DNA from: Escherichia coli
GTDB taxonomy: Bacteria; Pseudomonadota; Gammaproteobacteria; Enterobacterales; Enterobacteriaceae
Length of the DNA stretch: 64,000 nt
Direction: 5' to 3' (one strand)
Assembly (NCBI RefSeq): GCF_050320075.1
Contig: NZ_CP190018.1
Shown: piece after piece, positions 20,224 to 42,202 of the stretch
Position numbering within the stretch: position 1 is the first letter of the stretch
How the letters are laid out: every line of letters starts with the position of its first letter
Program-made: the position numbers and the translations under genes
Notes under the pieces: model-generated
Database searches by the model: none
The model's input: the letters and a program-made list of their open reading frames with translations, nothing else
Told to the model about the DNA's origin: nothing

Positions 20224-21661
20224 GCCATTTCAGCGCCCGTTTTCGCTGGCAACCCGCCTGACCTTTTTTATCAGCCTGGCCACCATCGCGGCGTTTTTCG
20301 CCTTTGCCTGGATCATGATTCACTCGGTAAAAGTGCATTTTGCTGAGCAGGATATTAATGATTTAAAAGAGATTAGCGCCACACTCAAGCGCGTTCTTAA
20401 TCATCCCGAAGAGACACAAGCCCGACGCTTAATGACGCTGGAAGATATCGTCAGTGGTTATTCCAATGTGTTGATTTCCCTGGCAGATAGCCAGGGTAAA
20501 ACGGTGTATCACTCCCCCGGTGCGCCGGATATCCGCGAGTTTACGCGTGACGCCATACCCGATAAAGACACGCGGGGCGGCGAGGTGTATCTCCTTTCCG
20601 GCCCGACGATTATGATGCCGGGCCACGGTCACGGGCATATGGAACACAGCAACTGGCGGATGATTAACTTGCCGGTTGGCCCGTTGGTGGACGGCAAACC
20701 GATTTATACGCTCTACATCGCGCTTTCGATCGATTTTCATCTTCATTACATAAATGATTTGATGAATAAACTTATTATGACCGCATCGATCATCAGCATC
20801 CTGATCGTCTTTATCGTGCTGTTGGCGGTACATAAAGGTCACGCACCGATCCGCAGCGTCAGCCGTCAAATCCAGAACATTACCTCGAAAGATCTCGACG
20901 TTCGCCTTGACCCGCAGACCGTGCCGATTGAGCTGGAACAGCTGGTACTGTCGTTCAACCATATGATCGAGCGTATTGAGGATGTCTTTACTCGCCAGTC
21001 CAATTTCTCAGCGGATATCGCTCACGAAATTCGTACACCAATTACGAATCTCATAACGCAAACCGAAATCGCCCTCAGCCAGTCACGCAGCCAGAAGGAG
21101 CTGGAAGATGTGCTCTACTCTAATCTCGAAGAGCTGACGCGAATGGCGAAAATGGTCAGCGATATGCTGTTTCTCGCCCAGGCCGATAACAACCAGCTAA
21201 TCCCCGAAAAGAAAATGCTCAACCTGGCGGATGAAATCGGCAAAGTGTTCGATTTTTTCGAGGCGCTAGCGGAAGATCGCGGCGTGGAACTGCGGTTTGT
21301 TGGTGACGAGTGTCAGGTTGCGGGCGATCCGCTGATGCTGCGTCGGGCGTTAAGCAACCTGCTTTCGAACGCCCTGCGTTATACGCCGCCCGGAGAGGCG
21401 ATTGTAGTGCGCTGCCAGACGGTCGATCACCAGGTGCAAGTTTCCGTCGAAAACCCCGGTACGCCCATTGCGCCCGAGCACTTACCGCGATTGTTTGACC
21501 GTTTCTACCGCGTTGACCCCTCCCGCCAGCGAAAAGGCGAAGGTAGCGGTATTGGGCTGGCGATAGTGAAATCGATTGTTGTCGCGCATAAAGGCACGGT
21601 TGCAGTAACGTCAGATGCTCGGGGGACAAGGTTTGTGATTATGCTGCCGGAGAGAGAGTGA
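20213..21661 (+). CDS. cusS: Copper-sensing histidine kinase
   Basis: ORF 20201..21661; start at [16 protein letters not shown]...; H-box ([12 protein letters not shown]) and ATPase motifs; overlaps cusR stop. Confidence 0.95.
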
Positions 21662-22397
21662 TTATTAAGTTCAAATTCAGGGCGTGGTGCATCACCTCCT
21701 GGTATTGTTGATCAACAAATTAGAGAAAAACTTATTAAACATATGAAATATCGAAGGCTTTTATTTTTCAAAGTTTCACGAGATGTTTGTATATGAAACT
21801 TAGTTAAATCTGTGTTTCTTCCAATTGTAGATCACAATGCCCTTTCTAAATTTTCATCGTTATAAACAAGCCATCTATCATATAAAGCAATGAATAATTT
21901 AATCGCGATTAATCATCATTAATTGTTATATTATTCACTCAATCTATTTATCAAGTGAATTTGATAAATTCCTAATTTAAAATATCCACTATTGAGCCAG
22001 TATTTAACAACGTTAAGATGTGCAATGTGCAGATCATGTTATCAGGGTGGAGCGGTAGCATATATTTCTTATGCAATCATTCATTTTAATAATGTTAATT
22101 GGATTATTTATTGCTGTGAATAAAAATATATTATGAATATTGGTTTAACTTTGCGTTTTTGTTACTCGTTGTGATATGCGTACCTGTCCTGAATAACGCC
22201 AAGAAACAAGAGGTTGAGCTTGTGATTATTTTTTTGACTGAACAGACACCCGTTTCTGTAAAGTAATATTTAAACAAAATTCTCACATAACCATAGCATT
22301 TTCTGTTCCTTCCCTAATAACGTCTGAAGTCGTCCCGCTTATCACATTATCCGCAGTTGTACGGTACGGATCATTATTCATTTTACTGGAGGTTGCT

Positions 22398-24299
22398 ATG
22401 TCAACCGGATTACGTTTCACACTGGAAGTGGACGGCCTGCCGCCGGATGCTTTTGCGGTGGTTTCCTTTCATCTGAACCAGTCACTCTCTTCGCTCTTTT
22501 CCCTCGATCTCTCCCTGGTCAGCCAGCAGTTTCTCTCCCTTGAATTTGCGCAGGTGCTGGACAAAATGGCCTACCTGACGGTATGGCAGGGCGATGACGT
22601 ACAGCGCCGGGTGAAAGGCGTGGTGACCTGGTTTGAACTCGGGGAGAACGACAAAAACCAGATGCTGTACAGCATGAAGGTGCACCCGCCGCTGTGGCGT
22701 GCCGGTCTGCGCCAGAACTTCCGTATCTTCCAGAACGAGGACATCAAAAGCATCCTCGGCACGATGTTGCAGGAAAACGGGGTGACCGAATGGAGTCCGC
22801 TGTTCAGCGAGCCGCATCCTTCCCGTGAGTTTTGTGTCCAGTACGGTGAGACTGATTACGATTTCCTGTGCCGGATGGCGGCGGAGGAAGGCATCTTCTT
22901 TTATGAGGAGCATGCTTACAAAAGTACCGACCAGAGCCTGGTGCTGTGCGACACAGTCCGCCATCTGCCCGAATCTTTTGAAATCCCATGGAACCCGAAC
23001 ACCCGTACCGAGGTGAGCACCCTCTGCATCAGCCAGTTCCGCTACAGCGCACAAATCCGCCCTTCTTCCGTGGTGACCAAAGACTACACCTTTAAACGCC
23101 CCGGCTGGGCCGGACGTTTTGAACAGGAAGGCCAGCACCAGGACTACCAGCGCACGCAGTATGAAGTGTATGACTACCCCGGACGTTTCAAGGGTGCCCA
23201 CGGGCAGAACTTTGCCCGCTGGCAGATGGACGGCTGGCGAAACAATGCAGAAACCGCGCGGGGAATGAGTCGCTCGCCGGAGATATGGCCGGGACGACGA
23301 ATTGTGCTGACGGGGCATCCGCAGGCGAACCTGAACCGGGAATGGCAGGTGGTGGCAAGTGAACTGCACGGCGAACAGCCACAGGCGGTGCCAGGACGGC
23401 AGGGAGCGGGGACGGCGCTGGAGAACCATTTTGCGGTGATCCCGGCAGACAGAACATGGCGACCACAGCCGTTGCTGAAACCGCTGGTCGACGGCCCGCA
23501 GAGCGCTGTCGTGACAGGACCGGCAGGCGAGGAAATCTTCTGCGACGAACATGGTCGCGTGCGGGTGAAGTTCAACTGGGACCGCTATAACCCGTCAAAC
23601 CAGGACAGTTCGTGCTGGATCCGTGTGGCACAGGCGTGGGCAGGCACCGGTTTTGGCCACCTGGCGATACCGCGTGTGGGTCAGGAGGTGATTGTAGACT
23701 TCCTCAACGGCGATCCGGACCAGCCGATCATTATGGGGCGCACCTACCACCAGGAAAACCGCACCCCCGGCAGCCTGCCGGGAACAAAGACGCAGATGAC
23801 CATCCGCTCCAAAACGTACATGGGCAGCGGATTTAATGAGCTGAAGTTTGATGATGCGACAGGGAGAGAACAGGTCTACATCCACGCGCAGAAGAACATG
23901 GATACCGAAGTGCTCAACGACCGTACCACCACCGTAAAACACGATCACCACGAAACCGTAAAAAATGACCAGACGGTCACGATCCAGGAAGGTAACCGCC
24001 TTCTTACGGTGGAAAAAGGCCACAAGATCACCGGAGTACTGAAAGGGTCTTTATCTGAGGATGTCTTTCAGGACAGAGGCACGATTGCCGGTTCGGTGCA
24101 TGTTGACGCTGTAAACAATGGTGGCGAAGGCGACGGTATACAGGCTTATACGGCGATTAAGGAAATTTTGCTGGCCGTGGAGGAAAGCAAAATTGCGCTG
24201 ACGCCGGATGGCATTCAGCTACAGGTCGGGGAATCGACGGTAATCAGGCTGTCGAAGGATGGCATCACCATCGTGGGCGGTTCTGTTTTCATCAACTGA
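22398..24299 (+). CDS. vgrG: Type VI secretion spike protein VgrG (gp27/gp5-like)
   Basis: 633-aa ORF MSTGLRFTLEVDGLPPDAFAVVSFHLNQSLSSLFSLDLSLVSQ... typical VgrG N-terminus; GGAGG RBS 7 nt upstream. Confidence 0.9.
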   Translation: MSTGLRFTLEVDGLPPDAFAVVSFHLNQSLSSLFSLDLSLVSQQFLSLEFAQVLDKMAYLTVWQGDDVQRRVKGVVTWFELGENDKNQMLYSMKVHPPLWRAGLRQNFRIFQNEDIKSILGTMLQENGVTEWSPLFSEPHPSREFCVQYGETDYDFLCRMAAEEGIFFYEEHAYKSTDQSLVLCDTVRHLPESFEIPWNPNTRTEVSTLCISQFRYSAQIRPSSVVTKDYTFKRPGWAGRFEQEGQHQDYQRTQYEVYDYPGRFKGAHGQNFARWQMDGWRNNAETARGMSRSPEIWPGRRIVLTGHPQANLNREWQVVASELHGEQPQAVPGRQGAGTALENHFAVIPADRTWRPQPLLKPLVDGPQSAVVTGPAGEEIFCDEHGRVRVKFNWDRYNPSNQDSSCWIRVAQAWAGTGFGHLAIPRVGQEVIVDFLNGDPDQPIIMGRTYHQENRTPGSLPGTKTQMTIRSKTYMGSGFNELKFDDATGREQVYIHAQKNMDTEVLNDRTTTVKHDHHETVKNDQTVTIQEGNRLLTVEKGHKITGVLKGSLSEDVFQDRGTIAGSVHVDAVNNGGEGDGIQAYTAIKEILLAVEESKIALTPDGIQLQVGESTVIRLSKDGITIVGGSVFIN

Positions 24300-24326
24300 T
24301 TCACTCAGATTATCAGGGAGTATTTT

Positions 24327-24788
24327 ATGCAGTTCACTTTTAATGAAGGCCACATTCAACTGCCGTCTCAATGGCAGGATCAGTCAATGCAGGTCCTGGT
24401 GTCCACAGATAACAGTGGCATCAACCTGGTCATTACCCGCGAAGCCGTTCCACAGGGAACCCTGACACCAGAGCTGTACCAGGAAACGCTGGCGCTGTAC
24501 CAGGGCAAACTTGATGGGTACACCGAACATGCCTGCCGGGAAATCACTCTGGCAGAGGCCCCGGCCTGGCTGCTGGATTATTCCTGGAACGGTCCGGAAG
24601 ATGAGGGGAATCAGGGGCGGATTAGCCAGATAGCCGTATTCCAGCGGCGTGGAGATACGCTGCTGACCTTCACTTTCAGCACCTCCTTATCCCTGAAGAA
24701 CAGTCAAAAGACGATGCTGCTGGAGGTGATAAAGAGCTTCACCCCGTTGCCACCGGAGAATGACATCCAAAAGGACCAGCCGCGCTGA
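24327..24788 (+). CDS. DUF1795-family (Eag-type) effector-associated chaperone
   Basis: 153-aa ORF immediately between vgrG and a prePAAR-Rhs gene; size and position match Eag chaperones; family assignment from memory of the sequence class, not from a search. Confidence 0.65.
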   Translation: MQFTFNEGHIQLPSQWQDQSMQVLVSTDNSGINLVITREAVPQGTLTPELYQETLALYQGKLDGYTEHACREITLAEAPAWLLDYSWNGPEDEGNQGRISQIAVFQRRGDTLLTFTFSTSLSLKNSQKTMLLEVIKSFTPLPPENDIQKDQPR

Positions 24789-24807
24789 CATAAACGAGGG
24801 ATAACAC

Positions 24808-27800
24808 ATGAGTGAAGGACCAGGCGGGCCACAGGGAGCGACCGCAGGCGGTACGCTGGCAATGCGAATGCTGTCACAGCAGGCGATGGTCGCCAGCCAG
24901 ATGAAACGGGCAGCCAACGACAAAGCCATTGCACAGATGCTGGCATCAAAAAAGTCCGGCCCCCCCGCCGCCAGGCTGGGCGATGAAATTCAGCACAAGA
25001 GTTTTTTGGGGGCGCTGGCAGGGGCCGTGCTGGGGGCGATAGTGACCATCGCAGAAGGTTGCCTGATTATGGCCGCCTGTGCCACCGGCCCTTATGCGCT
25101 GGTTCTGGTGCCTGCGCTGATGTATGCCAGCTATAAGGCGAGTGATTATGTGGAGGAGAAACAGAACCAGCTTGAATCATGGATAAACAGCTTTTGTGAC
25201 ACGGACGGCGCCATCAATACCGGTTCTGAAAATGTAAACATTAACGGAAAGCCCGCTGCCAGGGCCGCCGTCACCCTTCCCCCTCCTCCCCCACCTGGAG
25301 CAATACCTGAAATCCCACAGGGGGAACCCTCATGGGGTGATATTGCCACTGACCTGCTTGAATCGGCAGCGGAAAAAGCAGTACCACTGGCGAAGGCCTG
25401 GGGGAACGCTGTTATCACCCTGACGGACAGCAATGCCGGTTTTATGGATCGCGTCAGCGCCGGCGCATCGCTTCTGTTTCCCGCCGGTCCGGTATTAATG
25501 GAGTTTGCCACCATGGTGGGCGGGCGTGGCGAAATCAAAAAAGATGTGGATTTCCCGGAAGCCGGTGAGGACACGGCGCTCTGCGACAAGGAGAACAAAC
25601 CACCGAGGATAGCCCAGGGCAGCAGCAACGTCTTTATCAACAATCAGCCCGCCGCGCGCAAGGGCGACAAACTGGAGTGCAGCGCGGCAATCGTGGAAGG
25701 TTCGCCGGACGTCTTTATTGGCGGTGAACAGGTGACCTATCTGGATATCCAGCCAGAGTTCCCGCCGTGGCAGAGAATGATCCTGGGGGGAATAACGATA
25801 GCCAGCTATCTTCTGCCGCCAGCGGGACTGCTGGGAAAACTGAAGAATCTGGCGAGACTCGGCAAACTGGGGAACCTGCTGGGGAAAAGCGGGAAGCTGC
25901 TGGGGGCAAAGCTCGGCGCGTTGCTGGGAAAAACAGGTAAGTCGTTAAAAAGTATTGCCAATAAAGTCATCAGATGGGTAACAGATCCTGTCGATCCGGT
26001 AACCGGCGCGTACTGCGACGAACGTACCGACTTTACGCTGGGCCAGACCCTCCCCCTCTCCTTCACCCGTTTCCACAGTTCTGTACTGCCGCTGCATGGC
26101 CTGACCGGCGTGGGCTGGAGCGACTCCTGGAGCGAATACGCCTGGGTGCGTGAACAGGGAAACCGGGTGGATATCATCAGCCAGGGAGCCACGCTGAACT
26201 TCGCCTTCGACGGTGACAGTGATACGGCGGTTAACCCGTATCACGCCCAGTACATTCTGCGCCGCCGCGATGATTATCTGGAGCTGTTCGACAGGGATGC
26301 ACTGAGCAGCCGCTTCTTTTATGACGCCTTTCCGGGAATGCGTCTGCGCCACCCGGTGACTGACGATACCAGCGATGACCGCCTGGCACACAGCCCCAAT
26401 GACCGGATGTACATGCTGGGCGGGATGAGCGACACCGCCAGCAACCGCATCACGTTTGAGCGCGACAGCCAGTACCGGATCACAGGTGTCAGTCACACCG
26501 ACGGGATCCGGCTTAAACTGACGTACCACGCCAGCGGCTACCTGAAAGCCATTCACCGCACGGATAACGGCATACAGACGCTGGCGACCTACGAACAGGA
26601 TGCGCGGGGGCGGCTGACAGAAGCGGATGCGCGGCTGGACTACCACCTGTTTTATGAGTACGACGCTGCGGACCGGATCATCCGCTGGTCCGATAACGAC
26701 CAGACGTGGAGCCGTTTCACCTACGATGAACAGGGCCGGTGCGTGAATGTCACCGGGGCGGAGGGCTATTACAACGCCACGCTGGACTATGGTGACGGCT
26801 GCACCACCGTGACGGACGGCAAGGGCATTCACCGTTATTACTATGATCCTGACGGCAATATTCTGCGGGAAGCAGCGCCGGACGGCAGCACCACCATGTA
26901 TGAATGGGATGAATTCCATCACCTGCTGGCCCGTCACTCCCCTGCCGGGCGGGTGGAGAAATTTGAATACAACGCCGCACACGGTCAGTTAAGCCGTTAC
27001 ACGGCGGCAGACGGCGCGGAGTGGCAGTACCGCTATGATGAGCGCGGCCTGCTCAGCAACATCACCGACCCTGCCGGGCAGACGTGGACACAGCAGTGTG
27101 ATGAACGCGGCCTGCCGGTAAGTCTGGTGTCGCCACAGGGCGAAGAGACCCGGCTGGCATACACCGCTCAGGGGCTGCTGTCGGGAATATTCCGCCAGGA
27201 TGAACGGCGTCTGGGCATAGAGTACGACCACCACAACCGGCCGGAAACACTCACCGACGTGATGGGCCGCGAACACCACACCGAATACAGTGGTCACGAC
27301 CTGCCGGTGAAGATGCGCGGCCCCGGCGGTCAGTCAGTGAGGTTGCAGTGGCAGCAGCACCATAAACTGAGCGGCCTTGAGCGCACTGGCACCGGCGCGG
27401 AAGGATTCCGCTACGACCGTCACGGCAACCTGCTGGCGTACACGGACGGTAACGGTGTTGTCTGGACAATGGAGTACGGCCCGTTTGATTTGCCGGTGGC
27501 GCGAACGGACGGTGAAGGCCACCGCTGGCAGTACCGCTACGATAAAGACACGCTGCAACTGACAGAAGTCATCAACCCGCAGGGTGAGTCATATCTTTAT
27601 GTTCTGGATAACTGCGGCCGGGTGACGGAAGAGCGTGACTGGGGCGGCGTGGTCTGGCGTTACCGTTATGATGCCGATGGCCTGTGTACCGCCAGGGTTA
27701 ACGGTCTGGAGGAAACCATCCTCTACAGCCGGGACGCCGCAGGCCGCCTGGCAGAAGTCATCACGCCGGAAGGCAAAACGCAGTATGCGTATGACAAATC

Positions 27801-29640
27801 CGGCAGGCTGACGGGTATCTTCAGCCCGGACGGCACATCACAGCGCACCGGCTATGACGAACGCGGGCGGGTGAATGTCACCACTCAGGGCCGACGGGCC
27901 ATTGAATACCACTACCCCGATGAACACACCGTCATCCGCTGTATCCTGCCACCGGAAGATGAACGCGACAGACACCCCGGTGAATCCCTGCTGAAAACCA
28001 CGTACCGCTACAACGCAGCCGGAGAACTGGCAGAGGTCATCCTGCCGGAGGATGAGACGCTGACGTTCAGCCGTGATGAGGCAGGACGTGAAGTGCTCCG
28101 GCACAGTAACCGGGGTTTTGCCTGTGAGCAGGGCTGGAATGCAGCCGGTCAGCTTACCAGCCAGCGCGCCGGACTTTTCCCGGCGGAAGCCACATGGGGC
28201 GGACTGCTCCCCTCACTGGTGCGGGAGTACCGTTACGACAGCGCGGGCAATGTGTCGGCTGTCACCAGCCGGGAAGATTACGGACGGGAAACTCGCCGGG
28301 AGTACCGGCTGGACCGGAACGGCCAGGTCACGGCGGTGACAGCCTCAGGCACCGGGCTGGGCTATGGCGAAGGCGATGAGTCCTATGGCTATGACAGCTG
28401 CGGCTACCTGAAGGCGCAGTCTGCGGGCTGGCACCGGATAAGTGAAGAGACTGACCAGTATGCCGGAGGCCACCGGCTGAAACAGGCCGGAAACACGCAG
28501 TATGACTATGACGCCGCAGGCCGGATGGTCAGCCGCATAAAACACCGTGACGGCTACCGCCCGGAAACAGAGCGGTTCCGGTGGGACAGCCGTGACCAGC
28601 TGACCGGGTATTGCAGCGCACAGGGTGAACAGTGGGAATACCGCCACGACGCCAGCGGCAGACGGACGGAAAAACGCTGCGACCGGAAGAAAATCCGCAT
28701 CACGTACCTGTGGGACGGCGACAGTATTGCGGAAATCCGGGAATACCGCGATGATAAACTGTACAGCGTACGGCACCTGGTGTTTAACGGCTTTGAGCTG
28801 ATAAGCCAGCAGTGCAGCCGGGTACGGCAGCCGCATCCGTCCGTGGCCCCGCAGTGGGTGACGCGGACGAATCATGCGGTGAGCGACCTGACGGGCCGTC
28901 CGCTGATGCTCTTTAACAGTGAAGGTAAAACCGTCTGGCGACCGGGGCAGACCAGCCTGTGGGGGCTGGCACTCAGCCTGCCCGCAGACACCGGCTACCC
29001 GGACCCGCGCGGGGAACTGGACGCGGAAGCCGACCCCGGCCTGCTGTATGCAGGACAGTGGCAGGATGCGGAATCCGGGCTGTGCTATAACCGGTTCCGG
29101 TATTACGAGCCGGAAACAGGGATGTACCTGGTGAGTGATCCGCTGGGGTTGCTGGGGGGTGAGCAGACTTACCGGTATGTGCCGAATCCGTGTGGGTATG
29201 TTGATCCGCTGGGATTAGCATTTTGCCCCAGAATGCAGAAGACATTGCAAAAATTAACTGACAAGGCTGTTGCTGATATTATCGCTAACCCCAGACTCGC
29301 TGAAGATCTGATGTCGGCGGGGAGCTATGCACATTTAAAAAATGGAACTAATTTATATGCAGCCAGTTTTGGTAAGGCTGTTGAACGTAGGGTTGCACAG
29401 TTAGTTAGTGACAATTCCCGATTAAGCAAACTTGTTGAACATACTGGTCAGGCCAAGGGGGCTAATGGACAGTTTATATCGAGCCCTGACTTCACCACTA
29501 AAGGTAAAGGCGTGTTCGACGTTACAACAAATAAAGCACTCCAAGCGCATATAGACAGATATACTAAAGCTGGTGTGTATACTCCCTATAATGATATTGG
29601 TTACTTGGTATATGATGTCGTATATGGATTATCTTTCTAA
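24808..29640 (+). CDS. rhs: prePAAR/PAAR-domain Rhs polymorphic toxin (T6SS effector) with C-terminal toxin domain
   Basis: 1610-aa ORF; N-terminal AARLGDEIQH (prePAAR AARxxDxxxH), hydrophobic TM segments, PAAR-like segments (NINGKPAAR, FINNQPAARKGD), long YD-repeat region, Rhs core ending PCGYVDPLGL (PxxxxDPxGL) at 29188-29217, followed by ~141-aa low-GC C-terminal domain. Confidence 0.9.
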   Translation: MSEGPGGPQGATAGGTLAMRMLSQQAMVASQMKRAANDKAIAQMLASKKSGPPAARLGDEIQHKSFLGALAGAVLGAIVTIAEGCLIMAACATGPYALVLVPALMYASYKASDYVEEKQNQLESWINSFCDTDGAINTGSENVNINGKPAARAAVTLPPPPPPGAIPEIPQGEPSWGDIATDLLESAAEKAVPLAKAWGNAVITLTDSNAGFMDRVSAGASLLFPAGPVLMEFATMVGGRGEIKKDVDFPEAGEDTALCDKENKPPRIAQGSSNVFINNQPAARKGDKLECSAAIVEGSPDVFIGGEQVTYLDIQPEFPPWQRMILGGITIASYLLPPAGLLGKLKNLARLGKLGNLLGKSGKLLGAKLGALLGKTGKSLKSIANKVIRWVTDPVDPVTGAYCDERTDFTLGQTLPLSFTRFHSSVLPLHGLTGVGWSDSWSEYAWVREQGNRVDIISQGATLNFAFDGDSDTAVNPYHAQYILRRRDDYLELFDRDALSSRFFYDAFPGMRLRHPVTDDTSDDRLAHSPNDRMYMLGGMSDTASNRITFERDSQYRITGVSHTDGIRLKLTYHASGYLKAIHRTDNGIQTLATYEQDARGRLTEADARLDYHLFYEYDAADRIIRWSDNDQTWSRFTYDEQGRCVNVTGAEGYYNATLDYGDGCTTVTDGKGIHRYYYDPDGNILREAAPDGSTTMYEWDEFHHLLARHSPAGRVEKFEYNAAHGQLSRYTAADGAEWQYRYDERGLLSNITDPAGQTWTQQCDERGLPVSLVSPQGEETRLAYTAQGLLSGIFRQDERRLGIEYDHHNRPETLTDVMGREHHTEYSGHDLPVKMRGPGGQSVRLQWQQHHKLSGLERTGTGAEGFRYDRHGNLLAYTDGNGVVWTMEYGPFDLPVARTDGEGHRWQYRYDKDTLQLTEVINPQGESYLYVLDNCGRVTEERDWGGVVWRYRYDADGLCTARVNGLEETILYSRDAAGRLAEVITPEGKTQYAYDKSGRLTGIFSPDGTSQRTGYDERGRVNVTTQGRRAIEYHYPDEHTVIRCILPPEDERDRHPGESLLKTTYRYNAAGELAEVILPEDETLTFSRDEAGREVLRHSNRGFACEQGWNAAGQLTSQRAGLFPAEATWGGLLPSLVREYRYDSAGNVSAVTSREDYGRETRREYRLDRNGQVTAVTASGTGLGYGEGDESYGYDSCGYLKAQSAGWHRISEETDQYAGGHRLKQAGNTQYDYDAAGRMVSRIKHRDGYRPETERFRWDSRDQLTGYCSAQGEQWEYRHDASGRRTEKRCDRKKIRITYLWDGDSIAEIREYRDDKLYSVRHLVFNGFELISQQCSRVRQPHPSVAPQWVTRTNHAVSDLTGRPLMLFNSEGKTVWRPGQTSLWGLALSLPADTGYPDPRGELDAEADPGLLYAGQWQDAESGLCYNRFRYYEPETGMYLVSDPLGLLGGEQTYRYVPNPCGYVDPLGLAFCPRMQKTLQKLTDKAVADIIANPRLAEDLMSAGSYAHLKNGTNLYAASFGKAVERRVAQLVSDNSRLSKLVEHTGQAKGANGQFISSPDFTTKGKGVFDVTTNKALQAHIDRYTKAGVYTPYNDIGYLVYDVVYGLSF
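27186..29217 (+). repeat. Direct repeat copy 1 (3' part of Rhs core, ~2.03 kb)
   Basis: Near-identical to 30384..32412 (visible by eye: ATTCCGCCAGGATGAACGGCGTCTGGGCATAGAGTACGACCACCAC... through ...GATCCGCTGGGATT). Confidence 0.9.
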
Positions 29641-29662
29641 AGCAAACTAATGGTAACTAAAT

Positions 29663-30373
29663 ATGACAAAAGTTCTTGAGAATGAAGAGTTCAATTCTAT
29701 ACATATAGACGAAGGTGGGGTTTTTAATAGTTTACGCTTTGAAAAATGTCTTTTTCAAAGCTGTAGCATACTTAGCAGAAAACTAAATGATAATAGTGAT
29801 TTACCTCCTCGCTTTGAAAACATTCTCATTAAAGATTGCACTGCTCTTAATTGTGTAAGTGGCCCAGCTTTTTTAAAAGATGTAACTGTTGAGAATTTTA
29901 GGACCGGTGATATTTTTCTTATTTATTCCACTATGTTTCATCATGTAACATTAAAAGGAAAGCTTGGGGCAATAAAAATAAATAAAAAAGATTATGTGCG
30001 TGACTATGATAGCCATCAAAGACATATTGAGATGATGAGAACGAGATTTTATTCTCAGATAGATTGGGCGATGGATATATCACAGGCGAAGTTTTTAAGT
30101 TTCTCCTGCAAAGGTATCCCAGCAAAATTAATTAGACGAGATAGTGAGACTCAATTTGTTGTAACGAGGAAACGTTTCAACTCTATGGATGTACTAAATG
30201 CAGAATTTAAAGGACAATACCCGTTTGTTTATTTACTGCTGGAGCTCTTTTTAGAATCAGATGAAGATGACCAGGTATTAGTTACACCATTAGGCAAAGC
30301 AAAAAAATATTATCAGCCAATTCTCGAAGGATTTAGAGAGTTAAGACGAGCAGGAATACTCGAACCTAACTAA
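29663..30373 (+). CDS. Putative cognate immunity protein of the Rhs C-terminal toxin
   Basis: 236-aa ORF starting 22 nt after the rhs stop, AT-rich codon usage unlike the Rhs core; position is the canonical immunity slot. No recognisable family. Confidence 0.6.
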   Translation: MTKVLENEEFNSIHIDEGGVFNSLRFEKCLFQSCSILSRKLNDNSDLPPRFENILIKDCTALNCVSGPAFLKDVTVENFRTGDIFLIYSTMFHHVTLKGKLGAIKINKKDYVRDYDSHQRHIEMMRTRFYSQIDWAMDISQAKFLSFSCKGIPAKLIRRDSETQFVVTRKRFNSMDVLNAEFKGQYPFVYLLLELFLESDEDDQVLVTPLGKAKKYYQPILEGFRELRRAGILEPN

Positions 30374-30383
30374 ATAAGGGTTA

Positions 30384-32412
30384 TATTCCGCCAGGATGAA
30401 CGGCGTCTGGGCATAGAGTACGACCACCACAACCGGCCGGAAACACTCACCGACGTGATGGGCCGCGAACACCACACCGAATACAGTGGTCACGACCTGC
30501 CGGTGAAGATGCGCGGCCCCGGCGGTCAGTCAGTGCGCTTACAGTGGCAGCAGCACCATAAACTGAGTGGCCTTGAGCGCACTGGCACCGGCGCGGAAGG
30601 ATTCCGCTACGACCGCCACGGCAACCTGCTGGCCTGGACGGACGGTAACGGTGTTGTCTGGACAATGGAATACGGCCCGTTTGATTTGCCGGTGGCGCGA
30701 ACGGACGGTGAAGGCCACCGCTGGCAGTACCGCTACGATAAAGACACGCTGCAACTGACAGAAGTCATTAACCCGCAGGGTGAGTCATATCTTTATGTTC
30801 TGGATAACTGCGGCCGGGTGACGGAAGAGCATGACTGGGGCGGCGTGGTCTGGCGTTACCGCTATGACGCCGATGGCCTGTGTACCGCCAGGGTCAACGG
30901 CCTGGAGGAAACCATCCTCTACAGCCGGGACGCCGCAGGCCGCCTGGCAGAAGTCATCACGCCGGAAGGCAAAACGCAGTATGCCTATGACAAATCCGGC
31001 AGGCTGACGGGTATCTTCAGCCCGGACGGCACATCACAGCGCACCGGCTATGACGAACGCGGGCGGGTGAATGTCACCACTCAGGGCCGACGGGCCATTG
31101 AATACCACTACCCCGACGAACACACCGTCATCCGCTGTATCCTGCCACCGGAAGATGAACGCGACAGACACCCCGGTGAATCCCTGCTGAAAACCACGTA
31201 CCGCTACAACGCCGCCGGAGAACTGACGGAGGTCATTCTGCCGGGGGATGAGACGCTGACGTTCAGCCGTGATGAGGCAGGACGTGAAGTGCTCCGGCAC
31301 AGTAACCGGGGTTTTGCCTGTGAACAGGGCTGGAATGCAGCCGGTCAGCCTGTCAGTCAGCGCGCCGGACTTTTCCCGGCAGAAGCCACATGGGGCGGGC
31401 TGCTCCCCTCACGGGTACGGGAGTACCGTTACGACAGCGCGGGTAATGTGTCAGGCGTCACCAGCCGGGAAGATTACGGACGGGAAACACGGCGGGAATA
31501 CCGGCTGGACCGGAACGGCCAGGTCACGGCGGTGACAGCCTCAGGCACCGGGCTGGGCTATGGCGAAGGCGATGAGTCCTATGGCTATGACAGCTGCGGC
31601 TACCTGAAGGCGCAGTCTGCGGGCTGGCACCGGATAAGTGAAGAGACTGACCAGTATGCCGGAGGCCACCGGCTGAAACAGGCCGGAAACACGCAGTATG
31701 ACTATGACGCCGCAGGCCGGATGGTCAGCCGCATAAAACACCGTGACGGCTACCGCCCGGAAACAGAGCGGTTCCGGTGGGACAGCCGTGACCAGCTGAC
31801 CGGGTATTGCAGCGCACAGGGTGAACAGTGGGAATACCGCCACGACGCCAGCGGCAGACGGACGGAAAAACGCTGCGACCGGAAGAAAATCCGCATCACG
31901 TACCTGTGGGACGGCGAAGTATTGCGGAAATCCGGGAATACCGCGATGATAAACTGTACAGCGTACGGCACCTGGTGTTTAACGGCTTTGAGCTGATAAG
32001 CCAGCAGTTCAGCCGGGTACGGCAGGCGCATCCGTCGGTGGCCCCGCAGTGGGTGACACGGACGAATCATGCGGTGAGCGACCTGACGGGCCGTCCGCTG
32101 ATGCTCTTTAACAGTGAAGGTAAAACCGTCTGGCGACCGGGACAGACCAGCCTGTGGGGGCTGGCACTCAGCCTGCCCGCAGACACCGGCTACCCGGACC
32201 CGCGCGGGGAACTGGACCCGGAAGCCGACCCCGGCCTGCTGTATGCAGGACAGTGGCAGGATGCAGAATCCGGGCTGTGCTATAACCGGTTCCGGTATTA
32301 CGAGCCGGAAACCGGGATGTACCTGGTGAGTGATCCGCTGGGGTTGCTGGGGGGTGAGCAGACTTACCGGTATGTGCCAAATCCGTGTGGGTGGGTTGAT
32401 CCGCTGGGATTG
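30384..32412 (+). repeat. Direct repeat copy 2 (orphan Rhs core fragment)
   Basis: See copy 1 at 27186..29217. Confidence 0.9.
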
Positions 32413-32865
32413 GCTGCAAGTTCTAAAATCAGCAGTTTGATGGACTATATTGGCGATGGTCGTCGTGTTAGTGGGCATACGGGTTTCCTGGATGGGGTTC
32501 GTTTATCACGTAGTCAAATAAACAATATTGCTAAAGAAATGGAGAAGCTAGGAATTAAAGTAATAAGGAAAGCAGATAAATATTTGCCACCAAATGCTAG
32601 GGCAGCTTTTGATTATGGCCTTCGCAATATTTATCTTAGGAAAAATGCTACCTTATATGAGGTGTATCATGAAGTGATTCATGCTAAGCAATTTGCGAAA
32701 ATTGGACGAGAAGCATACGAAGCACTAGGACGTTTATCTAGGGAGGAACACGTTCTAAATGAAATATTAAAAAGTAAAAATTTATTCAATGAGGCGGAAA
32801 TAGCTCATGCCATAAAATATGTTGAGGGATTGAGAGAAAAATTCATGATGGGACTAATAAATTGA
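30384..32865 (+). pseudogene. Orphan Rhs core-fragment + alternative C-terminal toxin domain, frameshifted
   Basis: Repeats the 3' 2 kb of the rhs core; 1-bp deletion near 31917 (GGCGAAGTATTGCGG vs GGCGACAGTATTGCGG in the main copy) splits it into ORFs 30455..31996 and 31828..32865; ends DPLGL (32398-32412) + divergent ~150-aa CT containing HEVIH. Confidence 0.8.
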
Positions 32866-33113
32866 TAAAACATAACAAAATAACTATCGAAATGGCTCTT
32901 GACTTGGCTCGGCGTGAGTTAGAGTTAAGGGAAATTCCTTATATTAAAAATAGTCTACATGCCAATTACAGCTATAAATCTATTAGTATTGGTTCTAAGC
33001 AAGGTTGGTTAATTTCAGCGAAATTAAAAGTCCCTGAAACTTTTGAGCCTGATATGATATTTATTGAGATATCTGACCCAGAAGGTTTTATTAATATTCC
33101 TGATGTATTATAA
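32862..33113 (+). CDS. Putative immunity protein for the orphan Rhs-CT
   Basis: 83-aa low-GC ORF overlapping the orphan CT stop; start codon uncertain (TTG in ORF track). Confidence 0.45.
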   Translation: MIKHNKITIEMALDLARRELELREIPYIKNSLHANYSYKSISIGSKQGWLISAKLKVPETFEPDMIFIEISDPEGFINIPDVL

Positions 33114-33309
33114 ACTACGTTAGAGGTTTTGTTATAAGGTAATCGGTTTCTTTACAGACCGCTGGCGTACATCGCACAGAGGCTGCTAACAGGGATATTC
33201 CTGCCTGGATGAACGCAAGGCAAGATCATGGAAATAGTGATATACATCACTATTTCCATCCTGATTTTAGCTATCGCATTAATAAAACAGCGGATGTTAG
33301 CCAATATCG

Positions 33310-33500
33310 AAACCAGTAACCCGTATCACGCCCAGTACATCCTGCGCCGCCGCGATGATTACCTGGTGCTGTTCGACCGTGATGCCCTGAGCTGCCGCTT
33401 CTTTTATGACGCCTTTCCGGGAATGCGTCTGCGCCACCAGGTGACCGGCGATACCGACGATGACCGCCTGGCACACAGCCCCGCAGACCGGATGTATACA
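33310..33500 (+). pseudogene. Vestigial Rhs core fragment
   Basis: NPYHAQYILRRRDDYLVLFDRDALSCRFFYDAFPGMRLRH... matches main rhs at ~26228..26420; embedded in ORF 33228..33539 with unrelated flanks. Confidence 0.7.
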
Positions 33501-33579
33501 GGGAAAGATCATCAGAAGTACACTTTTTGTACTAAATAATTCACATTTTATGTTTAAAAATTGAGATATTCCTCATTAC

Positions 33580-34800
33580 CTGAAGCTGTTTTTTATTGCT
33601 TATACATGATCAAATACTCCTTACATAATTAAGGAGAACAAAATGGAACTTAAAAAATTGATGGAACATATTTCTATTATTCCCGATTACAGACAAGCCT
33701 GGAAAGTGGAACATAAATTATCGGATATTCTATTGTTGACTATTTGTGCCGTTATTTCTGGTGCGGAAGATTGGGAAGATATAGAGGATTTTGGGGAAAC
33801 ACATCTCGATTTTTTGAAGCAATATGGTGATTTTGAAAATGGTATTCCTGTTCACGATACCATTGCCAGAGTTGTATCCTGTATCAGTCCTGCAAAATTT
33901 CACGAGTGCTTTATTAACTGGATGCGTGACTGCCATTCTTCAGATGATAAAGACGTCATTGCAATTGATGGAAAAACGCTCCGGCACTCTTATGACAAGA
34001 GTCGCCGCAGGGGAGCGATTCATGTCATTAGTGCGTTCTCAACAATGCACAGTCTGGTCATCGGACAGATCAGGACGGATGAGAAATCCAATGAGATTAC
34101 AGCTATCCCAGAACTTCTTAACATGCTGGATATTAAAGGAAAAATCATCACAACTGATGCGATGGGTTGCCAGAAAGATATTGCAGAGAAGATACAAAAA
34201 CAGGGAGGTGATTATTTATTCGCGGTAAAAGGAAACCAGGGGCGGCTAAATAAAGCCTTCGAGGAAAAATTTCCGCTGAAAGAATTAAATAATCCAGAGC
34301 ATGACAGTTACGCAATGAGTGAAAAGAGTCACGGCAGAGAAGAAATCCGTCTTCACATTGTTTGCGATGTCCCTGATGAACTTATTGATTTCACGTTTGA
34401 ATGGAAAGGTCTGAAGAAATTATGCGTGGCAGTCTCCTTTCGGTCAATAATAGCAGAACAAAAGAAAGAGCCAGAAATGACGGTCAGATATTATATTAGT
34501 TCTGCTGATTTAACCGCAGAGAAGTTCGCCACAGCAATCCGAAACCACTGGCACGTGGAGAATAAGCTGCACTGGCGTCTGGACGTGGTAATGAATGAAG
34601 ACGACTGCAAAATAAGAAGAGGAAATGCAGCAGAATTATTTTCAGGGATACGGCACATCGCTATTAATATTTTGACGAATGATAAGGTATTCAAGGCAGG
34701 GTTAAGACGTAAGATGCGAAAAGCAGCCATGGACAGAAACTATCTGGCGTCAGTCCTTGCGGGGAGCGGGCTTTCGTAATCTTGCCCTGCCTGCTCACCT
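33580..34800 (+). mobile_element. H-rpt / ISAs1-family insertion sequence (approximate bounds)
   Basis: Transposase CDS 33643..34779; terminal inverted repeats not delimited by me. Confidence 0.5.
33643..34779 (+). CDS. H-repeat-associated protein / ISAs1-family transposase (H-rpt)
   Basis: 378-aa [63 protein letters not shown]... recognised as the H-rpt (YhhI/YdcC-like) transposase that accompanies Rhs elements. Confidence 0.85.
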
Positions 34801-35049
34801 CCTCCAGGCACTTCCACTACATGATGACCTGCTCGGTGCCACCGCTCCTTTTCACTATGACGTTAACCTCCCTGTCCCAGGACACCATGCTTTTGTCTAC
34901 ATTCTACGCAAACGGCAACTTTTATAACCAGTGTAAAAATAACGTGCCGCAATAGTCATACCTATTAATGGTAAAAAGCTGTCACAATTCATAAAAAACC
35001 TTAATATACGCCACCCTAAACATAACCAGCGTTAATGTAAGGTTTTTGT

Positions 35050-37287
35050 GTGGACTGGCTTCTTGATGTTTTTGCTACCTGGCTCTACGGCTTAAAAGTA
35101 ATCGCGATAACGTTAGCGGTCATCATGTTCATCAGCGGGCTGGACGATTTTTTTATTGATGTCGTCTACTGGGTACGCCGCATTAAACGCAAGTTGAGTG
35201 TTTATCGCCGCTACCCGCGAATGAGTTACCGCGAACTGTATAAACCAGATGAAAAACCGTTAGCGATTATGGTTCCGGCGTGGAATGAAACGGGCGTCAT
35301 CGGCAATATGGCCGAGCTGGCGGCGACCACGCTCGACTATGAAAACTATCATATCTTTGTTGGCACCTACCCCAACGACCCCGATACTCAGCGTGATGTT
35401 GACGAAGTGTGCGCTCGCTTCCCGAATGTGCATAAGGTAGTCTGCGCGCGACCTGGCCCCACCAGCAAAGCCGACTGCCTGAACAACGTGCTGGACGCCA
35501 TCACCCAGTTTGAGCGTAGCGCCAATTTCGCTTTTGCTGGTTTTATTCTGCATGACGCCGAAGATGTGATTTCACCGATGGAATTGCGTCTGTTCAACTA
35601 TCTGGTCGAGCGTAAAGATCTGATTCAGATCCCGGTGTATCCGTTCGAACGCGAATGGACGCACTTCACCAGCATGACTTACATTGATGAGTTTTCAGAA
35701 CTGCATGGCAAAGATGTTCCGGTGCGTGAAGCCCTCGCCGGACAAGTGCCCAGCGCAGGCGTCGGTACCTGTTTCAGCCGCCGCGCCGTGACCGCACTGT
35801 TAGCTGACGGTGACGGTATTGCTTTCGACGTGCAGAGTCTTACTGAAGATTACGACATTGGCTTCCGCCTGAAAGAAAAAGGTATGACGGAAATTTTTGT
35901 CCGTTTTCCGGTGGTGGACGAAGCCAAAGAACGCGAGCAGCGTAAATTTTTACAGCACGCGCGGACGTCAAACATGATCTGCGTGCGCGAATATTTCCCC
36001 GATACCTTTTCGACTGCGGTTCGACAAAAATCTCGCTGGATCATCGGCATTGTTTTCCAGGGCTTTAAAACCCACAAATGGACCTCCAGTCTGACGCTGA
36101 ACTACTTTCTCTGGCGCGACCGCAAAGGGGCAATCAGTAACTTTGTCAGCTTCCTCGCGATGCTGGTGATGATCCAGCTTTTGCTGTTGCTGGCGTATGA
36201 AAGTTTGTGGCCCGATGCCTGGCATTTCCTTTCTATTTTCAGCGGCAGCGCATGGTTAATGACTCTGCTGTAGCTAAACTTTGGCTTGATGATTAACCGC
36301 ATCGTGCAGCGGGTGATTTTCGTTACTGGCTACTACGGCCTGACGCAGGGGCTGCTATCTGTCCTGCGTCTTTTCTGGGGCAACCTGATTAACTTCATGG
36401 CCAACTGGCGCGCGTTAAAACAGGTACTTCAACACGGCGATCCACGTCGTGTCGCGTGGGATAAAACAACGCATGACTTCCCCAGCGTGACTGGCGATAC
36501 CCGCTCGTTGCGTCCGTTAGGTCAAATCCTGCTGGAAAATCAGGTCATCACTGAAGAACAACTCGATACAGCACTGCGTAATCGCGTCGAAGGTCTACGC
36601 CTGGGCGGTTCAATGCTGATGCAGGGGCTGATTAGCGCCGAACAGCTGGCACAGGCGCTGGCAGAGCAAAACGGCGTGGCGTGGGAGTCGATCGACGCCT
36701 GGCAGATCCCTTCATCACTGATTGCCGAAATGCCGGCTTCCGTGGCGCTGCATTATGCAGTACTGCCGCTGCGTCTGGAAAATGATGAGTTAATTGTCGG
36801 CAGTGAAGATGGTATTGACCCGGTTTCGCTGGCGGCCCTGACGCGTAAAGTCGGACGCAAAGTGCGTTACGTCATTGTTCTGCGGGGACAAATTGTCACG
36901 GGGTTACGCCACTGGTATGCGCGCCGACGCGGTCACGATCCGCGGGCAATGTTGTACAATGCGGTTCAGCATCAGTGGCTCACGGAACAGCAGGCCGGTG
37001 AAATCTGGCGGCAATATGTGCCGCATCAGTTCCTGTTCGCCGAAATACTGACCACGCTCGGTCATATTAATCGTTCAGCAATTAACGTGTTGTTATTGCG
37101 CCATGAACGCAGTTCTCTGCCGCTCGGCAAGTTTTTGGTCACCGAAGGCGTTATCAGCCAGGAAACGTTGGATCGCGTCCTGACAATTCAACGCGAATTA
37201 CAAGTTTCGATGCAATCACTATTACTCAAAGCAGGTTTAAACACAGAACAGGTTGCGCAACTGGAGTCCGAAAATGAAGGAGAATAA
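35050..37287 (+). pseudogene. nfrB: Phage N4 adsorption protein B (family-2 glycosyltransferase), interrupted by in-frame amber codon
   Basis: ORFs 35050..36273 (407 aa) and 36286..37287 (333 aa) are in the same frame, separated only by TAG at 36271-36273; 407+1+337 = 745 codons, the full NfrB length as I recall it. Confidence 0.8.
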
Positions 37288-41319: not shown

Positions 41320-42072
41320 ATGCAATTGAGCAGCAGTGAACCTTGCGTGGTGATCCTGACCGAAAAAGAGGTAGAGGTAAGCGTTAATAACCATGCCACG
41401 TTTACCCTTCCGAAAAATTACCTGGCCGCCTTCGCGTGCAACAATAACGTCATTGAACTCTCAACGTTAAATCACGTATTAATCACCCACATCAACCGCA
41501 ACATCATCAACGATTATCTGTTGTTTTTAAATAAGAACTTAACCTGCGTAAAGCCCTGGTCGCGGCTGGCTACCCCGGTTATCGCTTGTCATAGCCGTAC
41601 ACCGGAAGTGTTCCGGCTAGCCGCCAACCACAGCAAGCAGCAACCCAGCAAACCCTGCGAAGCGGAGTTGACGCGCGCATTGCTTTTTACCGTATTGTCT
41701 AACTTTCTTGAGCAATCGCGGTTTATTGCCCTACTGATGTATATCTTACGCAGCAGCGTCCGCGACAGCGTCTGCCGCATTATTCAAAGCGATATTCAGC
41801 ATTACTGGAATCTGCGAATTGTCGCCAGTTCGCTATGTTTAAGCCCCAGCCTGCTCAAAAAGAAATTAAAAAACGAAAATACCAGCTATAGCCAGATTGT
41901 CACAGAGTGTCGTATGCGTTACGCCGTACAGATGTTATTGATGGATAACAAAAATATCACTCAGGTAGCGCAATTATGTGGCTATAGCAGCACGTCGTAC
42001 TTTATCTCTGTTTTTAAGGCGTTTTACGGCCTGACACCGTTGAATTATCTCGCCAAACAGCGACAAAAGTGA
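41320..42072 (+). CDS. envY: AraC-family transcriptional regulator (porin thermoregulation)
   Basis: 250-aa ORF MQLSSSEPCVVILTEKEVEVSVNNHATF... with C-terminal AraC HTH. Confidence 0.85.
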   Translation: MQLSSSEPCVVILTEKEVEVSVNNHATFTLPKNYLAAFACNNNVIELSTLNHVLITHINRNIINDYLLFLNKNLTCVKPWSRLATPVIACHSRTPEVFRLAANHSKQQPSKPCEAELTRALLFTVLSNFLEQSRFIALLMYILRSSVRDSVCRIIQSDIQHYWNLRIVASSLCLSPSLLKKKLKNENTSYSQIVTECRMRYAVQMLLMDNKNITQVAQLCGYSSTSYFISVFKAFYGLTPLNYLAKQRQK

Positions 42073-42125
42073 TGTGGTGAAGGGCAAAGCGGAAACGGAT
42101 AAGACGGGGATAAATGAAGAAGAAA

Positions 42126-42202
42126 TGGCGCGCCCTGCAGGATTCGAACCTGCGGCCCACGACTTAGAAGGTCGTTGCTCTATCCAACTGAGCTAAGGGC
42201 GC
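42126..42202 (-). tRNA. argU: tRNA-Arg (anticodon UCU)
   Basis: Reverse complement reads GCGCCCTTAGCTCAGTTGGATAGAGCAACGACCTTCTAAGTCGTGGGCCGCAGGTTCGAATCCTGCAGGGCGCGCCA; cloverleaf-compatible, anticodon loop CTTCTAA. Confidence 0.92.

Follow-up and report, generated by a model that had tools for sequence, protein, structure and literature searches.

A probable auxiliary type VI secretion spike and effector island between cusS and nfrB of Escherichia coli, with a predicted rare Rhs toxin tip and an orphan MPTase4 cassette

Introduction

Delivery of Escherichia coli PAAR-Rhs-CT effectors (CT, C-terminal toxin) by a type VI secretion system (T6SS) needs the upstream vgrGO1 and eagR/DUF1795 genes (Ma et al. 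2017, Environ Microbiol 19:345, cited through the summary in PMC6730261); of the toxin domains named Rhs-CT1 to CT10, Rhs-CT1, which has been studied experimentally, carries MPTase4. A preprint on Shiga toxin-producing E. coli (STEC) presents the same operon with several rhs/immunity pairs, and in the enterohaemorrhagic E. coli (EHEC) strain EDL933 the locus is the vgrG1 island, comprising vgrG1 (z0707), eagR (z0706) and rhsF (PMC7216683). PMC6730261, the STEC preprint and PMC7216683 disagree as to which T6SS type fires VgrGO1. Here, we analyse a region between cusS and nfrB in a 64-kb stretch of an E. coli chromosome (contig NZ_CP190018.1; hereafter the window), which is very likely an auxiliary T6SS spike/effector island of this published vgrG-eagR-PAAR-Rhs-CT type.

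Class I prePAAR effectors require a cognate Eag chaperone (Ahmad et al. 2020, eLife, PMC7773334), and orphan toxin modules have been found to be activated by recombination in Salmonella (PMC3967940). A preprint of July 2026 (bioRxiv 10.64898/2026.07.13.738213) describes Stenotrophomonas rhizophila's vgrG6 cluster, which is flanked by S1 and S9 peptidases, and the toxin Tse6, whose tip belongs to a rare type of domain, of unknown function, that occurs on PAAR, Rhs, HINT and TPS carriers, whose immunity protein resembles a pentapeptide-repeat protein, and which mediates T6SS killing of some Actinomycetes. Set beside these systems, the cusS/nfrB island is an already described, widely distributed and RefSeq-annotated accessory T6SS effector island, and the only part of it with some novelty left is its Tse6-like primary toxin with a β-helix immunity protein, both predicted.

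Results

Gene content and boundaries of the island

The region compared, window positions 21000-35500 (a 14.5-kb query), matches with 100% identity the chromosome of E. coli YZLc1-3 (NZ_CP123240.1), a strain from chicken faeces in China, and the RefSeq annotation of that chromosome lists the same genes as the original prediction, which had been made from the sequence of the window. Profile searches confirmed each component of that prediction at its place (vgrG, a DUF1795 chaperone, a 1610-aa Rhs protein, a candidate immunity gene, an orphan cassette, a rhs vestige and an H-rpt element), the VgrG and Rhs open reading frames (ORFs) retrieving the VgrG and Rhs families (TIGR03361, YD repeats, Rhs_assc_core). 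The proposed location between cusS and nfrB holds, with cusS ending at 21661 and nfrB starting at 35050 in agreement with RefSeq; the proposed bounds, 21662-35049, do not, the boundaries set by homology being 21637 and ~34906. The orphan Rhs-CT/immunity cassette is present and has to be corrected in one respect, a 1-nt deletion at 31918 that frameshifts the orphan. The features are as follows.

21637-21661, plus strand: alternative 3′ end of cusS (…FVIMLPERE, then stop), seen in island-bearing genomes on comparison with empty-site genomes
21662-22397, plus strand: AT-rich leader 5′ of vgrG, 31.5% GC
22398-24299, plus strand: vgrG, 633 aa, T6SS spike (TIGR03361, 625.6 bits against a cutoff of 186)
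24327-24788, plus strand: eagR-type chaperone, 153 aa (PF08786 DcrB/DUF1795, E 1.7e-27; RefSeq 'DcrB-related protein')
24808-29640, plus strand: class I prePAAR-PAAR-Rhs effector, 1610 aa (prePAAR_I PF25799, E 4.4e-5; PAAR, DUF6531, YD repeats, Rhs_assc_core)
29218-29637, plus strand: primary C-terminal toxin domain, Rhs aa 1471-1610 (140 aa), 41% GC, pI 9.3
29663-30373, plus strand: candidate cognate immunity protein, 236 aa, 34% GC
30383-32865, plus strand: orphan rhs fragment without N-terminus, ending in Tox-MPTase4 (E 8.4e-33)
32904-33113, plus strand: 69-aa ORF (WP_001299578.1), presumed MPTase4 immunity gene
33317-33496, plus strand: vestigial rhs piece of 180 bp, abutting the ISEc1 end (91.7% identity to 26232-26411 of the main rhs)
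33497-34790, plus strand: ISEc1 (ISAs1 family, H-rpt), ends ±3 nt (transposase ORF 33643-34779, NF033564, 417 bits)
34791-34906, no strand: unassigned stretch of ~116 nt from ISEc1 to the right homology break, from comparison with an island-free genome

The alignment to an island-free genome for which the original prediction had called, run with strain GF4-3, placed both junctions. On the left, homology breaks at 21636/21637, within the last cusS codons; on the right, backbone homology returns at ~34907, 143 nt before nfrB, with GCAAACGGCAAC…. The island thus delimited is window 21637-34906, about 13.27 kb, and takes the place of 26 nt of the empty site. Neither a target-site duplication nor inverted repeats were found at the island ends, and an Rfam scan of 21000-36000 returned no RNA family. 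Base composition is mosaic, with 31.5% GC in the leader, 60% in the rhs core and 32-41% in the toxin/immunity tips, between flanking genes of 52-53%. The remainder of the window is ordinary backbone (ent, fep, cus, nfr, sfm/fim, pur, all), and, as predicted, no T6SS core gene lies within its 64 kb.

The delivery module and a T6SS at aspV

The genes vgrG, DUF1795 eagR and PAAR-Rhs are adjacent and in the order that defines the E. coli vgrG-eagR-PAAR-Rhs-CT islands. In the Rhs protein, the prePAAR motif AARLGDEIQH at aa 54-63 fits AARxxDxxxH, and it is followed by a strongly hydrophobic transmembrane domain (TMD) region at aa 63-107 (Kyte-Doolittle peak) and a split PAAR at aa 132-153 and 266-310 (window 25201-25734). 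Motif, single TMD region N-terminal to PAAR and Rhs/YD shell together make this a class I prePAAR protein, with DPLGL motifs at aa 1444 and 1466 toward its C-terminus. The ~110-aa insertion in the PAAR includes both a moderately hydrophobic segment and a stretch rich in proline, PPPPPPPGAIPEIP; a weaker hydrophobic stretch follows PAAR at aa 324-343, within a Gly/Lys-rich hydrophobic stretch at aa 324-380.

On NZ_CP123240.1, a complete T6SS cluster is found at tRNA-Asp (aspV), ~400 kb away (record 4,043,728-4,068,180). It comprises tssB, tssC, tssE, tssF, tssG, tagH, tssJ, tssK, dotU, tssH/clpV, vasI, tssA, tssM, vasL, two hcp genes and one vgrG, and its core genes are all annotated intact. 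The island VgrG and the aspV-cluster VgrG are 93% identical over residues 1-529, the gp27/gp5 spike core, and diverge in the C-terminal ~100 aa. A shared core with a different C-terminus is the pattern expected of an alternative spike for the same machine that would recruit another PAAR effector. The complete aspV T6SS and the VgrG paralogy therefore support the proposal that the island is an auxiliary module depending on a T6SS encoded elsewhere. The vgrG-linked 'RHS element core protein' gene within the aspV cluster is frameshifted, and beyond it lie a further ISAs1 copy and a fragment of a transposase (NZ_CP123240.1 4,037,088-4,045,869).

The vgrG-proximal ~450 nt of the leader (from ~21945 to 22397) share ~94-95% identity with the region 5′ of the vgrG/Rhs element at ydcC/ydcD in many genomes, and this homology suggests that orphan vgrG islands have a regulatory leader in common. 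Scanning of the leader for sigma-70-like promoters and for terminators gave nothing above shuffle expectation.

Layout consistent with C-terminal displacement

Rhs main/orphan arrays are said to have formed by C-terminal displacement, an account that reportedly goes back to Jackson et al. in 2009. In the window, main rhs 27187-29216 is repeated directly at 30383-32411 (2031 bp, 97.6% identity), and the homology of the two copies ends within 4 nt of the second DPLGL codon (aa 1466). The orphan copy, shifted out of frame at 31918, runs on into its own tip at 32412-32862, which matches PF15640 over its full length (model 1-132 of 132, E 8.4e-33) and carries HEVIH, a zincin HExxH motif.

A counterpart with the MPTase4 tip in the main gene exists in strain MRSN346647. 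Specifically, VgrG (WP_001550773.1) and Eag (WP_001160804.1) are identical to those of the window and are followed by a full-length 1620-aa Rhs-MPTase4, with no extra cassette, and then by the same 69-aa ORF, the vestige, ISEc1 and an intact nfrB. Because the same 69-aa protein follows full-length Rhs-MPTase4 in other strains, it is presumed to be the MPTase4 immunity protein. Among 5426 complete E. coli genomes, the collection used for all population counts here, the MPTase4 tip and the 69-aa ORF occur together in 1152 genomes (21%), and the primary tip and 236-aa ORF in 158, in all of them on the chromosome and with at least 99% DNA identity. Between the 69-aa ORF and the rhs vestige lies a 32-nt near-perfect palindrome, ATGGAAATAGTGATATACATCACTATTTCCAT, at 33228-33259.

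The layout fits the signature of C-terminal displacement, in which the rarer toxin/immunity pair would have demoted MPTase4 to an orphan. An ancestral Rhs-MPTase4 island would have gained, along with ~2 kb of rhs core, the new toxin/immunity cassette, and the old MPTase4 tip, pushed downstream, would have become a promoterless orphan that was later frameshifted, its 69-aa immunity gene being kept intact. From the arrangement of the two copies, an intact, active Rhs-MPTase4 could be regenerated only by crossing over past the frameshift, in the distal ~494 bp of the homologous stretch. It is plausible that, by retaining the 69-aa gene, the strain stays immune to MPTase4, a common toxin.

The primary toxin tip

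The 140-aa primary tip, whose residues are numbered below from the start of the domain, had no match in Pfam, NCBIfam or PDB sequence searches. A word-indexed protein search found 3 matches only, and an exhaustive profile search, run on 1.84 billion representatives, brought up 90 relatives, in nearly all of which the domain is C-terminal. Upstream of it, the relatives carry RHS, PT-HINT or PT-TG modules, including YD-repeat proteins of 4000 aa. By these carriers and its scarcity, the domain is a predicted rare polymorphic-toxin tip.

In a 41-sequence family alignment, P25, G52, E56, D91, T103 and T104 are invariant, position 101 is D or E in every sequence, and H111 is almost invariant. The AlphaFold model of the tip (pLDDT 83, pTM 0.82) has the order α(E56)-β-β(P90-D91)-β(D101-V-T103)-α-β, with helices at 47-65 (containing E56) and 108-117 and strands at 92-94 (after P90-D91), 99-104 (containing D101) and 127-132. 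Polymorphic toxins include tips with a PD-(D/E)xK nuclease fold, for example CdiA-CT nucleases and the Tox-REase families. Examined for the core of that fold, the model has αβββαβ topology with acidic residues located on α1, where β2 begins, and on β3. That the tip is a PD-(D/E)xK-like nuclease in which Thr replaces the Lys has, on the model and the alignment, somewhat better than an even chance, and is short of established.

The immunity protein and the Tse6/Tsi6a family

The 236-aa protein (pI 7.6, net charge about +1) is predicted to consist of an N-terminal pentapeptide-repeat-like β-helix (right-handed quadrilateral) and a C-terminal α/β domain. Its sequence had no match in Pfam (even at E<=10), NCBIfam or PDB sequence searches, and no pentapeptide repeat profile matched.

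In an unrelated metagenome-assembled genome (MAG), an ORF for a 33%-identical toxin overlaps, by 4 nt, a 32%-identical homologue of the 236-aa protein. Furthermore, the S. rhizophila Rhs protein WP_448132835.1 has a homologous tip (51% identity across 228 aa, a span that takes in the core end, E 4e-63; identity between its cluster representative and the 140-aa toxin is 63%), and directly 3′ of it lies a homologue of the 236-aa protein (34% identity, E 1e-49). The putative toxin-immunity pairing is thereby conserved in two other, unrelated genomes. Genes for S1 (Trypsin/PDZ) and S9 peptidases flank the S. rhizophila locus, and it is through these flanking peptidases, not through a sequence from the paper, that the locus is linked to the vgrG6 strain; on that link, the E. 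coli primary tip is probably a member of the Tse6/Tsi6a family.

Distribution among E. coli genomes

The survey of lineages that had been proposed shows that the island is a common polymorphism of about half of E. coli, neither rare nor lineage-specific. The left junction of the window is present in 2412 of the 5426 genomes, at least 80% of the 14.5-kb query is matched in 1133, and variants occupy the same site in O157:H7, IAI1, O104:H4 and SE11, the O157:H7 genomes carrying the island next to cusS. An uninterrupted cusS|nfrB junction, the empty site, is found in 2326, including K-12 derivatives (ER2796), in line with the original prediction, by which K-12 has no Rhs element between the two genes. 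The 3′ end of cusS occurs as two haplotypes, …FVITLPA-stop at the empty site and …FV[IM/IK]LPERE-stop, island carriers having …FVIMLPERE-stop.

Neighbouring genes

In the window, nfrB (35050-37287) has TGG changed to TAG at codon 408 (W408 to stop; 36271-36273), noted by RefSeq as an 'internal stop', and is a pseudogene; GF4-3 has an intact copy, and in MRSN346647 and IAI1 the gene is annotated as an unbroken coding sequence. Because NfrB and NfrA belong to the phage N4 adsorption pathway, the nonsense codon may make the strain resistant to phage N4. Farther on, envY stands directly beside tRNA-Arg, which is followed by fimZ (window ~41320-42202), and ompT, appY and the DLP12 prophage are absent there; in the K-12 map, these three lie between envY and tRNA-Arg/fimZ.

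Discussion

Proposed mechanism

The gene identities, the junctions, the frequencies, the T6SS core cluster, the duplication of the rhs core and the toxin-immunity synteny were observed. Secretion, cleavage, toxicity, immunity and nuclease chemistry are inferred from the families involved, and the mechanism is worded accordingly. EagR would shield the transmembrane helices at the N-terminus of the Rhs (class I prePAAR), whose prePAAR/PAAR tip would cap a trimer of the island's own VgrG, sharing as it does the gp27/gp5 core of the aspV-cluster VgrG. The aspV T6SS would fire the loaded spike into neighbouring bacteria, and the Rhs shell would cleave itself after the second DPLGL and release the 140-aa C-terminal toxin. 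The toxin would most likely be a metal-dependent nuclease (DNA or tRNA) with the non-canonical PD-(D/E)xK site E56…P90-D91…D101-x-T103, and the producer would be protected by the 236-aa protein encoded immediately downstream.

Alternative explanations

Several points weigh against a T6SS-delivered nuclease. Our survey of the genome for a T6SS inspected one locus, aspV. None of the 41 members of the toxin family matches a Pfam or NCBIfam toxin or nuclease model, the position of the (D/E)xK Lys is taken by the invariant T103, and K53, on α1, is not invariant. A DNA-mimic mode of action for the 236-aa protein was downgraded because the protein is not acidic. The Tse6 preprint assigned no activity, and a mycobacterial homologue was once predicted to be an ADP-ribosyltransferase (bioRxiv 10.64898/2026.07.13.738213). 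The primary toxin could accordingly be another enzyme, for example an ADP-ribosyltransferase, or could act on a topoisomerase, with a pentapeptide-repeat-like immunity protein that, rather than binding the toxin, protects the target in the manner of Qnr, McbG or AlbG; we think this unlikely. We also give little credence to a biochemically uncharacterised effector class, in which the Thr-Thr PD-(D/E)xK-like scaffold, paired with a β-helix immunity protein similar to the pentapeptide-repeat protectors of gyrase, would use a novel chemistry or hit a novel target (a topoisomerase-DNA complex, for instance), or immunity would work by target protection and not by toxin sequestration. The cassette might alternatively be a decaying, non-functional remnant, present in this strain and neither delivered nor expressed. 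E. coli T6SS loci often stay silent under laboratory conditions, the leader has no sigma-70-like promoter above chance, and there is decay close by or in related genes, namely the orphan rhs frameshift, the nfrB nonsense codon and the frameshift in the aspV-cluster Rhs gene; however, vgrG, eagR, the rhs gene for the 1610-aa protein and the two immunity ORFs are all unbroken, their proteins recur unchanged in other genomes under the same WP accessions, the DNA of the primary CT/immunity pair keeps at least 99% identity wherever it occurs in its 158 genomes, and the T6SS core genes are annotated as intact throughout, which makes a remnant quite improbable. A further view would have the Rhs and orphan modules act mainly inside the cell, as toxin-antitoxin (TA)-like regulators rather than T6SS weapons, as for Salmonella RHS, where PMC7043789 describes type II TA-like behaviour of Rhs and orphan Rhs. 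The linkage of the present genes to vgrG and eagR, the prePAAR/PAAR/TMD delivery region, the frameshift of the orphan and the published T6SS-dependent delivery of sister Rhs-CTs in E. coli (PMC6730261) all argue for a weapon, and a TA-like role is most improbable.

The same weighing applies to how the site came to be polymorphic. The original prediction had called the island an accessory insertion; accessory it is relative to K-12, and insertion, as opposed to loss in K-12, is favoured by an outgroup, by foreign base composition and by the absence of the 26 nt of the empty site from the island, without being proven by them. The outgroup is E. whittamii, the sole non-coli Escherichia with the full locus in a scan of the species-level collection that did not retrieve E. 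albertii, E. fergusonii or E. marmotae; it has the empty cusS-nfrB-nfrA arrangement and the cusS end …FVITLPA-stop. If the island were instead ancestral at the site, K-12-like genomes would have lost it by deletion. A filled site is as common as an empty one (2412 against 2326 genomes) and is found in very different lineages (O157:H7, IAI1, O104:H4, SE11 and an ST38 strain), and the cryptic Escherichia sp. MOD1-EC7003 also has a …LPERE-stop cusS end, followed there by sequence unrelated to the island. This last case counts against a simple insertion polarity as well: the left boundary is therefore mosaic. Deletion is opposed by the E. whittamii arrangement and by the 26 nt, which are not found in the island, so that the empty site is not a simple excision product. 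It is also opposed by the strongly atypical composition of the island (31% GC in the leader, 60% in the rhs core and 34-41% in the tips, against 52-53% in the backbone) and by the CusS ends of Citrobacter (…TLPKHAI-stop), which are marginally nearer the empty-site type, the CusS ends of Citrobacter and other genera being weakly informative. On balance, an ancestral island appears doubtful, and insertion is the reading we prefer.

Significance

As an example of diversification of the E. coli T6SS arsenal at a fixed chromosomal hotspot, the island is a textbook case that adds little by itself. It does offer a clean natural instance of apparent C-terminal displacement, with a 'before' (MRSN346647) and an 'after' (the window) at near-identical sequence. 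In addition, it brings into E. coli, a genetically tractable background (158 complete genomes), a Tse6-like toxin paired with an immunity protein of pentapeptide-repeat-like type, and the enzymatic activity of this rare and only lately noticed family could be determined there.

Comparison with known systems

The closest described systems are the vgrGO1-eagR-PAAR-Rhs-CT islands, with which the present island shares the order vgrG, DUF1795 eagR and PAAR-Rhs with a variable C-terminal toxin and an immunity gene; its orphan tip is the MPTase4 domain of Rhs-CT1. It differs from the published islands in that its active tip has no Pfam model and MPTase4 is reduced to a frameshifted orphan. Its effector resembles Salmonella Rhs1/SciW and Pseudomonas protegens RhsA/EagR1 (PMC7773334) in having AARxxDxxxH, one TMD region before PAAR, a YD shell and an adjacent DUF1795 chaperone, whereas it is 1610 aa long against a typical ~1200 aa, its PAAR is split by ~110 aa, and a second, weaker hydrophobic stretch is present at aa 324-343.

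With the Rhs main/orphan arrays, the island has in common a direct repeat of the rhs core (2031 bp, 97.6%), an orphan toxin/immunity pair downstream of that repeat and a distal H-rpt/ISAs1 element, and its orphan, as in those arrays, has no N-terminus, a core common with the main gene and a distinct CT with an immunity gene; it departs from them in the frameshift at 31918. The primary tip resembles the PD-(D/E)xK tips of CdiA-CT and Tox-REase toxins as a small C-terminal αβββαβ domain with conserved E…PD…(D/E) and a dedicated immunity gene, but it has no profile match and an invariant Thr-Thr replaces the Lys of the third motif. A close counterpart of the toxin-immunity pair is probably Tse6/Tsi6a of the S. 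rhizophila vgrG6 cluster, which has a 540-aa TPR-like protein in place of Eag and belongs to another host and niche, and which, if the S. rhizophila locus compared here is that cluster, shares with the E. coli pair a homologous, rare tip domain and, downstream of it, a homologous immunity protein of pentapeptide-repeat-like character.

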